Assembly: GCF_016903815.1 (NCBI RefSeq)
Contig: NZ_CP069973.1
Source: Escherichia coli
GTDB lineage: Bacteria; Pseudomonadota; Gammaproteobacteria; Enterobacterales; Enterobacteriaceae
DNA length: 64,000 bases
Direction: 5' to 3' (one strand)
Below are positions 22,926-25,464 of the stretch, piece by piece. The notes under the pieces are model-generated. The model was not told where the DNA came from and searched no databases. It saw nothing but the letters and a program-made list of their open reading frames with translations. Both the position numbers and the translations under genes were made by a program. The number at the start of each line of letters is the position of its first letter. The first letter of the stretch is position 1.

Positions 22926-23334
22926 TGAAAATTCCTCAAGTTGGAGAGTTCTGGAACATTAAGGCGAGGTGGCAGTAATGCACCATCTGTAATCTTTTGA
23001 TACTGACGTAATCGGGCCTGATGTGCAACGCCTTGCAAGTATGTAACTCATTGAAAACGATCATTTTTATCTATTGACATCAAATGGCAAACTGTCATTG
23101 TGCGGCTATGGCAAGTGGCAAATGCTTATAAATCATATGGATATAAATAGTACAGAAAGAGTTGTTTTCTCTAGGATATGAGTATACGCCCAATGCTGAT
23201 TGGTTGAATTTTGTTCTTGTTTTAAAGGGTAAGAGTTTAAAGTGTTGGCAGTGATGTATTGGATAGTTAGAATTGCTGTGGGTGCTTGAGGCTATCTGCC
23301 TCGGGCATGAACACCAAAGGTAGATAGAGAAAAG

Positions 23335-23402
23335 CCCCAGTTAACATTACGCGTCCTGCAAGACGTTTAACATTAATCTGAGGCCATATCTATGCGACAC
23401 AT
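23335..23402 (-). ncRNA. putative Sok-like antisense RNA
   Basis: The minus strand carries TTGACC, an 18-nt spacer and TAATCT opposite the mok/hok leader, by analogy to R1 hok/sok. The ends are approximate. Confidence 0.3.
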
Positions 23403-23447
23403 AGAGATTAGCCTCTTACGGACCGAAAGGTCAAGGAGAAGCAGGCT

Positions 23448-23573
23448 ATGAAGCAGCAAAAGGCGATGTTAATCGCCCTGATCGTCATCTGTTTAACCGT
23501 CATAGTGACGGCACTGGTAACGAGGAAAGACCTCTGCGAGGTACGAATCCGAACTGGCAGACGGAGGCTCTGA
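23448..23573 (+). pseudogene. hok-family (HokD/RelF-like) type I toxin gene, frameshifted and 3'-diverged
   Basis: The first 37 aa (MKQQKAMLIALIVICLTVIVTALVTRKDLCEVRIRTG) match recalled HokD. GGCAGACGGAGG appears where GGCCAGACGGAGG is expected, so a 1-nt loss gives ...RRRL stop at 41 aa. Upstream hok-type leader elements are present (GCTTGAGGCTATCTGCCTC, TAGCCTCTTAC, CAAGGAGAAG). Confidence 0.7.
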
Positions 23574-23655: not shown

Positions 23656-23997
23656 CTATTCTTTTTTTGCGGTATAGACTTTTTCGCCTGAGAAGTCTGG
23701 AGCTACCCAAAAGTTAATATTAAACTGAGCATCATCGCTTAGTTCAACACGGTGCCAGTATTGTGGTGGGCTTGTTGCAAAAGCGCCAGCATTAATGACT
23801 ACTTTTATCTCCGGTTCAGTAGCATTCTCATCAGCAAAACCATAATATGTTACAGTACCTTCCATCACGCATAACTGTCCAAAAACACCTGCTGCTGTAT
23901 TATGATGTGTTAATAACGCTGAAGGTACGTTCTCTTTTGTGAAGAACGGAGTTGAGCGTTTGATTACCCAGTCTTTAGGAATTCTCTTGTGTGTCAT
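23656..23997 (-). CDS. DUF1971 (YeaR / TehB-N-terminal-like) cupin-type protein
   Basis: 113 aa from MTHKRIPKDWVIKRSTPFFTKENVPSALLTHHNTAAGVFGQLCVMEGTVTYYGF...PPQYWHRVE...FNINFW, colinear with recalled YeaR. SD GGAGGTGG is upstream. Confidence 0.7.
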   Translation of the reverse strand: MTHKRIPKDWVIKRSTPFFTKENVPSALLTHHNTAAGVFGQLCVMEGTVTYYGFADENATEPEIKVVINAGAFATSPPQYWHRVELSDDAQFNINFWVAPDFSGEKVYTAKKE

Positions 23998-24364
23998 AAC
24001 CACCTCCCATAAAACATGCATTATAAATGCACCTTTTTGAGGGTTATGTCAAGCTGTTATGAAACACATAATTGATATGTTGATTAGAGGAGAAGATAGA
24101 ATCAATATGGTTGTTTTTCGTATAACTATTTGTTTTACTTTTAGTTTGTGCATTCTGTGTGTTAGGAATAACTTATTAAAGTTTAACTAAAAAATCTCGA
24201 TATAGTCCGCATAGATTACTGTTACTGAATCTTATTGTGTGCATTAGTTGTGTTCTGAAATTTCAATTTAATTACTTATGATATATTTTTAACGATAAAT
24301 GTTTTCCGGGTTAAAGACAGTGGGGGATGAGATAAGCAATATATCATTAATCTTGATTATTTCC

Positions 24365-24430
24365 AGGATGCCTTTACTGTGCATATAAATAAATCATATA
24401 CGCATCAAATAATGTAAAGGCATCCTTTTA
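24365..24430 (+). terminator. long hairpin plus T-run (13-bp perfect stem AGGATGCCTTTAC / GTAAAGGCATCCT)
   Basis: Stems at 24365-24377 and 24414-24426, followed by TTTTA. The T-run is only on the plus strand, so the hairpin faces the 3' end of the minus-strand peptide gene. Confidence 0.4.
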
Positions 24431-24499
24431 GATATATCTTATCAAATGTTAATGATTTGAGTGGGAAACATGATTCCAGAAACTAATCATGCGGCTACT

Positions 24500-24586
24500 T
24501 TATAAAAATAATGCCCATATAAAACAGCCAGCGAAAAGGATTACGGATAAAAAAGGAGCGAGATGTGCATAGTTGTTATTTTCCAT
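24500..24586 (-). CDS. possible 28-aa hydrophobic peptide
   Basis: Product is MENNNYAHLAPFLSVILFAGCFIWALFL, with SD AAGGTGG 6 nt upstream of the ATG. It lies in an AT-rich intergenic island. Confidence 0.4.
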   Translation of the reverse strand: MENNNYAHLAPFLSVILFAGCFIWALFL

Positions 24587-24864
24587 GTTTAACCACCTTA
24601 AATAATTGATGATGACGGGATGTGCATCTGTAATGCTTTTGTTGAAATGTTATGATAAAAAAGAACTTTTTCATAACATTAAAATGTAATTTATCTAATC
24701 GTTTTTAATAATAAGTGTTGTATTTCTATCCTTGTATCAGCTATTTGATATGTAGTGTTTGTTCATGTTATGTGGAGCTTTACACCATAGCCAGTTTATT
24801 TATACTTTATTCGTCAGCCTGAACAACTGGCATCTGCTGCACTGCGCCATCGAGAGATTGAGAA

Positions 24865-25464
24865 ATGGCGCATATACAACTGGTCAAACAAACCTCTTCT
24901 GGACTACTTCTCCCGGCGACGCCGGAGAGTTGCGATTTTTTGCATCAAATCAAAATAGGCGAGTGGATACACGCAGACTTTAAGCGTGTGCGTAACTACG
25001 CATTCCACAAGCGTTTTTTCAAACTCCTGCAACTGGGATTCGATTACTGGACTCCGGTCGGTGGGGCGATCACGCCTCGCGAACGAAAGCTGGTTTCAGG
25101 ATTCGTTGATTACCTATGTGAATCAGTAGGCCGGGAACATACGCCAGCTCTGAGCGAAGCCGCAGAGCAATATCTGAATACAGTTGCGACACGCAGAACC
25201 CGGGATACGGCATTGCTAAAGTCGTTTGAGGCTTTCCGCGAGTGGGTAACCATTCAGGCCGGATTTTACACCGAGCATCTTTATCCTGATGGTAGCCATG
25301 GGCGTCGGGCGAAATCCATCGCTTTTGCGAATATGGACGAAACCGAGTTTCAGCAGGTTTATAAATCTGTTCTGAATGTGCTGTGGAACTGGATTCTGTT
25401 CCGTAAATTTTCCTCTCCGGAACAAGTCGAAAATGTGACCGCGCAGCTGCTGGAGTTTGCGTAA
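24865..25464 (+). CDS. conserved lambdoid nin-region protein (DUF1367-like)
   Basis: 199-aa ORF with an ATGG overlap to the next gene. The family call is from memory only. Confidence 0.5.
   Translation: MAHIQLVKQTSSGLLLPATPESCDFLHQIKIGEWIHADFKRVRNYAFHKRFFKLLQLGFDYWTPVGGAITPRERKLVSGFVDYLCESVGREHTPALSEAAEQYLNTVATRRTRDTALLKSFEAFREWVTIQAGFYTEHLYPDGSHGRRAKSIAFANMDETEFQQVYKSVLNVLWNWILFRKFSSPEQVENVTAQLLEFA

Follow-up and report, generated by a model that had tools for sequence, protein, structure and literature searches.

An unannotated 28-codon gene for a small hydrophobic peptide in a putative moron-like cassette of Escherichia and Shigella lambdoid prophages

What, if anything, is encoded in the AT-rich gap between the DUF1971 and DUF1367 genes of a Rac-like lambdoid prophage of Escherichia coli? 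The gap lies in a 64,000-nt stretch of contig NZ_CP069973.1 (RefSeq assembly GCF_016903815.1), referred to here as the window, and an original prediction, made from the nucleotide sequence, had placed in it a minus-strand open reading frame (ORF) of 28 amino acids (aa) with a polar head and a hydrophobic stretch, preceded at a distance of 6 nt by the Shine-Dalgarno (SD) sequence AAGGTGG, and had read the surroundings as a possible type I toxin-antitoxin (TA) locus. The features of the ORF are all borne out by the window sequence:

24500-24586, minus strand: 28-aa ORF MENNNYAHLAPFLSVILFAGCFIWALFL, the maximal ORF of its frame.
24593-24599, minus strand: SD sequence AAGGTGG, 6 nt (TTAAAC) before the ATG.

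The peptide is polar over residues 1-9 (mean Kyte-Doolittle hydropathy of -1.2) and apolar over residues 10-28 (+2.3 to +2.6), with the apolar stretch reaching the C terminus. The substitution patterns described below identify this frame, with high confidence, as a selected product, and we conclude from them that the 28-codon ORF is a real, selection-maintained, unannotated gene for a small hydrophobic peptide. For the locus as a whole, the explanation that we favor, and hold to be reasonably probable, is an autonomous, moron-like cassette of ~230 bp for a 28-aa inner-membrane peptide anchored by its C terminus. Our confidence is strong in the component parts, namely, that the 28-aa ORF is under selection, that the cassette is mobile and combines an invariant upstream block with a leader hairpin on the sense strand, and that no known family matches.

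Sensitive blastn detected the cassette region in 1,174 of the 5,426 complete E. coli genomes, 705 of which match at an identity of only 60-80%, starting at query position 170; this position corresponds to window position 24499, one base from 24500, where the stop codon ends. The frame is intact, with 28 aa, in three divergent prophages, namely, a Qin-like prophage in which it lies beside hokD (L002), a second prophage (L003), and phage vB_EcoS-683R6 (L004; hereafter, 683R6), and the consensus of the three is MENNKSAHY[AV]PFLS[VI]ILFV[LF]CC[VA]WA[LV]FL. A wider set of variants was assembled from 80 IMG/VR loci retrieved with a peptide pattern and from loci retrieved by the upstream block alone, that is, with no selection for the ORF, yielding ~200 loci together. 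At the nucleotide level, this set contains 18 distinct ORF sequences and, at the protein level, 16 variants, and every ORF consists of exactly 28 codons; no frameshift or nonsense change was detected in the ~200 loci, the two exceptions being ORFs truncated where the fetched sequence stops. The ORF columns of the alignment are gap-free and 38% of them are variable; the leader carries several indels, with 74% of its columns variable. Variable sites within the ORF fall on codon positions 1, 2, and 3 in the proportion 6/10/17, and between lineages the Nei-Gojobori estimates are 0.47 for pS and 0.11 for pN, giving a pN/pS ratio of 0.24, whereas the ratio for the other frames is ~1, except for the mirrored antisense frame (0.29). 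Conservation of the ORF with a synonymous pattern of change had been proposed as a check of the original prediction, and the uniform length of all variants, the low pN/pS, and the enrichment of third positions all speak in its favor.

The ORF is the last element of a conserved unit of ~230 bp that comprises an AT-rich block, a leader with a 5' hairpin, a variable leader segment, the SD sequence, and the ORF itself. Between prophages of 72-79% identity, the homology extends from the stop codon to ~25-30 nt upstream of the AT-rich block, the upstream limit being seen in a locus with an insertion sequence (IS) element upstream (L013) and in L043 and L195. The two upstream elements are as follows:

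24672-24715, minus strand: near-invariant AT-rich block CTTATTATTAAAA..G.TTA.A.AAATT..ATTTTAATGTTATG, the presumed promoter or regulatory region.
24646-24680, minus strand: leader inverted repeat with the core TGTTATG ... CATAACA, the arms of which are kept in all lineages.

The AT-rich block stays conserved across the lineages with such highly variable leaders and, when used alone as a DNA search pattern, always retrieved an intact ORF 128-135 nt downstream. It contains candidate -10 elements, TACATT/TAAATT and TATTAT, the latter accompanied by a good -35 element (TTGCTG) in Qin-type lineages only, and is presumed to be the promoter of the peptide gene. By-eye inspection of the block for LexA, Fur, and IHF-like motifs, the only kind made, gave nothing convincing. 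Within the leader repeat, 96.6% of the cells are paired on the sense strand versus 84.1% on the antisense strand; two changes are one-sided and lead to G-U pairs (GC to GU and UA to UG), and two inner pairs are altered on both sides. The observed pairing or covariation was matched by only 3 of 500 shuffles, and slid controls reached at most 60% pairing. These observations suggest that the repeat forms a sense-strand 5' stem-loop of the peptide mRNA, although, with only ~5 independent lineages, the evidence is suggestive rather than conclusive. Such a stem-loop would imply that the mRNA starts upstream of 24680, placing the promoter in the AT-rich block and giving a leader of at least 94 nt. 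Between the hairpin and the SD sequence, the leader is variable and ~60 nt long, and the segment before the ORF reads ATTAT-N-TTAAGGTG-N6-ATG. The position of the SD is kept in all lineages, with the sequence being AAGGTGG, AAGGTGA, AAGGTAG, AAAGTGA, or AAAGCGA.

Masking of the SD by mRNA structure, a trait of many type I toxins, was considered and rejected: its unpaired probability (0.12-0.50) is similar to the whole-mRNA average (0.39-0.51), no pairing partner is consistent across the lineages, and the 4-bp SD helix predicted by RNAalifold contributes little (consensus energy of -6.3 kcal/mol). Downstream of the ORF, the minimum-free-energy fold of the putative mRNA contains one more element:

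24469-24491, minus strand: weak AU-rich hairpin CATGATT / AATCATG, then TTTCCC.

This hairpin, a weak indication from folding, may mark the 3' terminus of the peptide mRNA in the window lineage, and it is not conserved beyond the window-type lineage.

The cassette was seen in at least five contexts. It is convergent with hokD, ~105 nt away, in Qin-like prophages; it precedes a DUF1971 gene in prophages of the window and L015 types, and lies beside an S8 peptidase gene in phage 683R6 and behind an IS element in a fourth context; and, in the fifth (L195), it is located ~1.2 kb from tail-fibre genes, in a flank 99% identical to an E. coli prophage. Comparison of these contexts shows the cassette to be a unit that moves between them. 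Because of the five contexts, the sharp homology ends, and the low G+C content, that is, a discrete unit of deviant base composition in varied surroundings, the cassette is best described as a putative moron-like, autonomous element of Escherichia and Shigella lambdoid prophages. A hok gene is located ~150 nt downstream in 45 of the 86 ORF-bearing loci examined. No copy was found in K-12, where Qin and DLP12 were inspected and where rem occupies the Qin site, and in a scan of one genome per species the only carriers were Shigella flexneri and Escherichia ruysiae; a third match, in a GC-rich metagenome-assembled genome (L088), was dismissed on inspection as due to chance. The copy number per genome has a median of 1 and a maximum of two places, with one copy in the window. 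Thus, tandem duplication or multiple copies, which Fozo et al. used as a feature in their search for type I TA systems (PMC2887945), were not observed; this feature is frequent among such systems but not obligatory.

Some details of the flanks deserve separate mention. In Qin-like prophages (L002, 3002-3110), the hokD terminator, ACCCGC-TTCG-GCGGGT followed by a T-run, ends ~20 nt from the stop codon of the peptide gene and has no U-tract in the direction of the latter, so that a peptide mRNA extended by read-through would be complementary to the hokD mRNA at its 3' end. In 683R6 (L004, 3002-3130), a strong bidirectional terminator occupies the site equivalent to that of the hokD terminator. 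Some 550 nt downstream of the cassette in the tail-fibre context, Rfam gives matches to SraC/RyeA and SdsR/RyeB that stay below threshold (L195, 1410-1513; 27 and 26 bits).

In agreement with the claim that the peptide belongs to no recognized family, it had no significant match in NCBIfam, Pfam, PHROGs, PADLOC, or PDB sequences. NCBIfam, the curated naming library of NCBI, presumably holds models of the E. coli type I toxins. In NCBIfam and Pfam at E values up to 10, only sub-threshold matches to unrelated families were obtained (Lp6.6 lipoprotein, E = 0.031; Sec20, E = 0.12), and Rfam yielded no match in the cassette of any lineage at E values up to 1. An exact look-up of four variants in a collection of 15 billion proteins returned none, which, given a possible length floor of that collection, is weak evidence of non-annotation; the peptide strings had no match in full-text literature either, and the hokW-sokW paper makes no mention of a neighboring element. 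Assignment to lipoproteins or Rz1-like o-spanins was tried and rejected: the lipobox is not conserved (FAGC is found in the window variant only, with FACC or VLCC in the others), only 7 residues would follow the lipobox Cys, and the PHROG spanin match (E = 0.009) was obtained with one variant only. In size and topology (<60 aa, hydrophobic, one predicted transmembrane helix), the peptide conforms to type I toxins. Its last 10 residues, [A/V][G/L/C/F/S]C[F/C][I/V/A]WA[L/V]FL, include one Trp and no charged residue; the cluster of charged or bulky polar residues within this C-terminal segment, another search feature of Fozo et al., is absent. Judging by these comparisons, the peptide appears to represent a new family of small hydrophobic prophage peptides that is type I toxin-like in size and composition.

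Put together, the favored explanation would operate as follows. A promoter in the AT-rich block would drive leftward transcription of the gene, opposite in direction to the early-right operon, and the long mRNA leader would open with a protective stem-loop that stabilizes the message. Translation would be initiated efficiently at the strong SD sequence, and the peptide would insert into the inner membrane by its C-terminal helix, where it may act either as a membrane-active factor of the type I toxin/Hok kind or by modulating a membrane protein. This action at the membrane would benefit retention of the prophage or defense of the host, like the hok/sok module that usually abuts the cassette. 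Several points count against this explanation. The membrane-activity step is purely conjectural. The promoter is not confidently placed, with several weak candidates that cannot be ranked in such AT-rich DNA. The 3' end of the transcript differs by context, with strong bidirectional terminators in 683R6, the hok terminator in the Qin type, and only the weak hairpin in the window. K-12 lacks the gene, so that the published K-12 small-protein and transcription-start maps are uninformative. The small number of independent lineages means that the structural and dN/dS statistics rest on few events. Finally, the mirrored antisense frame is also open and its pN/pS is low, though it lacks a conserved start, stop, or SD.

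The last of these points underlies one competing account, according to which the region would be a conserved noncoding RNA, or a DNA regulatory element of the divergent DUF1367/nin-region promoter, with the ORF being incidental, or else the mirror ORF would be the real gene. Located at 24489-24572 on the plus strand, the mirror ORF encodes 27 aa here and as many as 57 aa in other loci, stays open in every lineage, and shares its third positions with the sense ORF; because its start and stop differ from lineage to lineage and no SD is conserved, we judge it, from the alignments, to be a by-product of the sense frame. The greater conservation of the upstream block compared to the ORF and the invariance of some synonymous sites fit this account, as do the open antisense frame and its low pN/pS, but the length, start, stop, and SD placement of the ORF are invariant while its flanks carry indels, the third-position excess and the low pN/pS are specific to the ORF frame and its mirror, the homology ends exactly at the stop codon, and the cassette is found also away from the DUF1367 promoter. 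We therefore regard a noncoding element or a mirror gene as very unlikely. The original prediction itself offered another model, in which a convergent plus-strand small RNA (sRNA) of ~100-150 nt would end at a hairpin beyond the stop codon and act on the 3' end of the peptide mRNA, the layout of txpA/ratA and bsrG/SR4. The hairpin is present much as described, 74 nt past the stop codon (~75 bp had been stated) and with a T-run on the plus side only:

24365-24377 / 24414-24426 (element 24365-24430), not assigned to a strand: perfect 13-bp inverted repeat with 36 nt between the arms and TTTT on the plus side only.

By our estimate, ~0.001 perfect 13-mer inverted repeats within 100 nt would be expected by chance in 871 bp, and the region is more stable than shuffled sequences on both strands (z = -4.1 for plus and -4.8 for minus). 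The stem is also maintained, with at least 11 of the 13 pairs kept in six arm variants and one G-C to A-U change compensated; the one-sided changes in the arms favor different strands. A plus-strand promoter-like sequence, CTGAAA-16-TATGAT (24255-24282; 9 of 12 matches), is kept in L015-type relatives. These observations would suit the convergent sRNA, but the number of plus-strand promoter-like sites in the region does not exceed the chance level (4 versus 5.1 expected from shuffles), the hairpin is more stable on the minus strand (-30.7 versus -25.5 kcal/mol on plus), and its 36-nt arm gap is atypical of an intrinsic terminator, none having been reported there by the terminator scan. Furthermore, the proposed RNA would end short of the ORF with no overlap and would contain a 60-bp indel, the commonest relatives lacking 24300-24360 up to a mosaic junction at ~24360, at the hairpin. 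The distribution is also at odds with an antitoxin: the original prediction had proposed conservation in other prophages as a check, which the peptide passes, with the region present in 1,174 genomes and all 16 variants having 28 aa, but the hairpin does not, occurring in 464 genomes, once in each and only with the window/L015-type cassette. The remaining ~700 carriers have no such hairpin, and the Qin-like, L003/L004, and tail-fibre contexts all lack it although they conserve the ORF just as well. In this respect, a 3'-overlapping antisense RNA conserved together with the toxin gene, as in txpA/ratA, was not found, and we give the convergent-sRNA model hardly any credence. A dispersed repeat element, also considered, is incompatible with the occurrence of the hairpin once per genome and with this cassette type only. 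In every context, some hairpin with a plus-side T-run follows the stop codon (the hokD terminator in Qin-like prophages, the bidirectional terminator in 683R6, another one in L043), an arrangement that is normal for convergent gene pairs and does not constitute evidence of an sRNA. Most likely, the lineage-specific 24365-24430 hairpin would terminate or insulate against plus-strand read-through, form a structure at the 3' end of the leftward transcript, or do both; it is neither a dedicated antitoxin element nor a component of the conserved unit.

A bona fide type I TA system could instead have the layout of hok/sok, with a cis-antisense RNA transcribed through the leader, pairing with the 5' untranslated region and blocking translation or triggering decay of the toxin mRNA. 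A candidate start for such an RNA overlaps the beginning of the ORF:

24580-24606, plus strand: candidate antisense promoter, with the putative -35 TTTCCA (complement of ATGGAAA), a 15-nt spacer, and the putative -10 AATAAT.

All five lineages keep TTTCCA on the plus strand, followed after 15-16 nt by AATAAT, CATAAT, or TATGAT, that is, the arrangement persists though the -10 bases vary, and the transcript would start near position -27, antisense to the leader, as in hok/sok. This conservation is ambiguous, however, because the same bases make up the start codon, the SD, and the AU-rich region used in translation. The long and highly variable leader is compatible with a cis-antisense partner, which would tolerate such variation automatically, and at about -132 there is a 5-bp stem, CG[C/T]TT-N8-AAG[C/T]G, with a U-rich tail, the GC, AU, and GU states of which fit pairing on the plus strand only. 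In size and hydrophobicity, the peptide resembles Ibs, ShoB, TisB, DinQ, and ZorO. The general features of such toxins have been reviewed (PMC12648545), and a hok/sok neighbor is present as well. Against these points, there is no credible plus-strand intrinsic terminator between the ORF and DUF1367, the search of the antisense strand having returned weak hairpins only: the -132 stem amounts to just -4 to -5 kcal/mol and was undetected in the window lineage at the scan cutoff of -3 kcal/mol, and small hairpins at -36 to -55 are too near the putative start site. Within the leader hairpin, the substitutions favor the sense strand, the SD is not consistently sequestered, and the single copy without tandem repeats, the absence of the polar C-terminal cluster (PMC2887945), and the lack of an Rfam match likewise argue against such a system. 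A plus-strand stem at 24561-24629, in which AGAUGUGCAU pairs with AUGUGCAUCU through two G-U pairs among others and the anti-SD CCACC lies in the apical loop, was set aside as probably incidental because it is confined to the window-type lineage. Overall, a hok/sok-like type I TA system is an unlikely alternative; in the same measure, the cassette could conceivably represent a new family of type I TA systems, or a toxin-like addiction or defense module, in which a 28-aa membrane toxin would be controlled by a cis-antisense RNA overlapping its start codon. Were this so, read-through of the antisense-controlled toxin unit in the Qin-like arrangement might overlap the 3' end of the convergent hokD mRNA and cross-regulate both membrane toxins. 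Of the type I TA-like locus originally proposed, what stands is the small hydrophobic peptide of type I toxin size and the association with hok/sok in most contexts; the antitoxin RNA that it assumed is not supported.

The setting of the moron-like cassette in the window is that of a Rac-like lambdoid prophage, and positions 24000-24870 are 100% identical in many E. coli chromosomes. One of these is the chromosome of strain 7/2 (NZ_CP023820), and in its annotation the gene order is HTH (helix-turn-helix) repressor, ydaT, and ydaV; KilA-N (minus strand); Hok/Gef; DUF1971 (minus strand); the unannotated gap; DUF1367, DUF1364, and DUF1133 (Q-like); and holin, lysozyme, spanin, and trkG. The gap between DUF1971 and DUF1367 is ~845 bp long, with a G+C content of 25-33% compared to ~50% in the flanks; it had been described as AT-rich and otherwise free of ORFs, of which the former holds and the latter does not, several ORFs of 20-43 aa being present, the largest falling below 60 aa. 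The peptide ORF lies ~478 nt from DUF1971 on its downstream side, more than the 250 nt asked for by Fozo et al., and 278 nt from the DUF1367 start on its upstream side, less than their 400 nt. No feature is annotated at the ORF in the RefSeq records listed or in the four matching phage records.

About 1 kb from the peptide ORF, an Rfam match to sok at 23280-23450 (E = 1e-22) marks a hok/sok locus at 23280-23573 on the plus strand. The adjoining Hok has 41 aa and departs from HokD after ...EVRIRTG, where GRRRL and a stop codon replace QTEVAVFT..., and it is still labeled as a Hok/Gef family protein by RefSeq; the description of this locus as a decayed hok/sok is a fair one. The DUF1971 (YeaR-like) gene (23656-24021, minus strand) separates hok from the peptide cassette and shares the orientation of the latter. 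Since this gene is replaced by others in the locus behind an IS element (L013) and is missing in the Qin type, it looks like a separate moron. Divergent from it is an ORF of 43 aa (24059-24190, plus strand), MKHIIDMLIRGEDRINMVVFRITICFTFSLCILCVRNNLLKFN, with a hydrophobic C-terminal half; the frame is open in all related loci (43-100 aa, with a few substitutions) and no good SD was seen; it might be a second small protein or a coincidence among closely related sequences. The AT-rich DNA upstream of the DUF1971 gene also contains an imperfect direct repeat of 28 nt, TTAGTTTGTGCATTCTGTGTGTTAGGAA (24141-24168 / 24232-24259; 75% identity, 91 nt apart). At the other end of the gap, a near-consensus sigma-70 promoter, TTTACA-16-TATACT (24779-24806, plus strand; 10 of 12 matches), precedes the nin/Q-like genes, and the cassette is usually divergent from it. 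This promoter is followed by a leader (...CAGCCTGAACAACTGGCATCTGCTGC...), and promoter and leader (24779-24865, plus strand) are almost invariant between Rac-like and Qin-like prophages despite the different downstream gene (DUF1367 versus a Rem-adjacent hypothetical protein). A strong, constitutive-looking promoter directly upstream of nin/Q-like genes is unexpected for a lysogen.

How does the cassette relate to known systems? Among the small type I toxins of E. coli, IbsC has 19 aa, ShoB 26, DinQ 27, and TisB and ZorO 29 each. Type I toxins are usually shorter than 60 aa and have one transmembrane helix, and some are located in prophages (PMC12648545, PMC2887945), where, in other cases, they stabilize the elements that carry them (PMC12648545). 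Similar to the small E. coli toxins, the gene described here encodes a very short, single-helix hydrophobic peptide, lies in a long AT-rich intergenic region, was missed by annotation, and has a long leader (PMC12648545, PMC2887945). Unlike them, it belongs to a mobile prophage cassette and is present in single copy, with no sRNA partner identified, and the peptide shares no sequence similarity with known families in the NCBIfam and Pfam searches at E values up to 10 and ends in a purely apolar C terminus (...WALFL) without a polar or charged cluster. Like hok/sok, the cassette carries, in a prophage and at the same site, a gene for a small membrane peptide; the two units are convergent and ~105 nt apart in most contexts, and a possible antisense promoter lies inside the leader, as for sok. 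Hok, however, is a protein of ~50 aa with a periplasmic tail, expressed from a locus with mok, tac, and fbi elements; its sequence shows no similarity to that of the 28-aa peptide, and hok does not accompany every copy of the cassette. In txpA/ratA, bsrG/SR4, and yonT/SR6 of Bacillus prophages, a convergent sRNA acts at the 3' end of the small-toxin mRNA (PMC12648545, PMC5848175). In the window, by contrast, the putative sRNA would leave a gap of 74 nt to the ORF, and most carriers lack its hairpin.

Morons are autonomous insertions of a promoter, gene, and terminator in lambdoid phages. The cassette shares with them a self-contained organization, sharp homology limits, a G+C content well below that of its surroundings, variable sites, and an orientation opposite to the surrounding operon, but is far smaller, and its own promoter and terminator are predicted only. 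MgtS, AcrZ, PmrR, KdpF, and YohP, in turn, are regulatory small inner-membrane proteins that are encoded in the core genome and have known partners or inducing signals. Proteins of this type, reviewed in PMC12648545, resemble the 28-aa peptide in being 20-50 aa long with one transmembrane helix and in having been discovered only by dedicated small-protein searches; no sequence relationship between them and the peptide was found.

Annotation systematically misses small hydrophobic proteins, and the present gene is a case in point: it is intact in approximately one in five complete E. coli genomes (~22%) as well as in S. flexneri and E. ruysiae, yet it is unannotated, and the K-12 catalogs could not have revealed it because it is absent from K-12. 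If the peptide is a true type I toxin, it would found a new family beside hok/sok in lambdoid prophages; if it is not a toxin, it would be a new prophage-encoded small membrane protein with a host target worth finding. In either case, the compact ~230-bp cassette provides a handle on toxicity, on prophage stabilization or phage exclusion, and on control at the RNA level.

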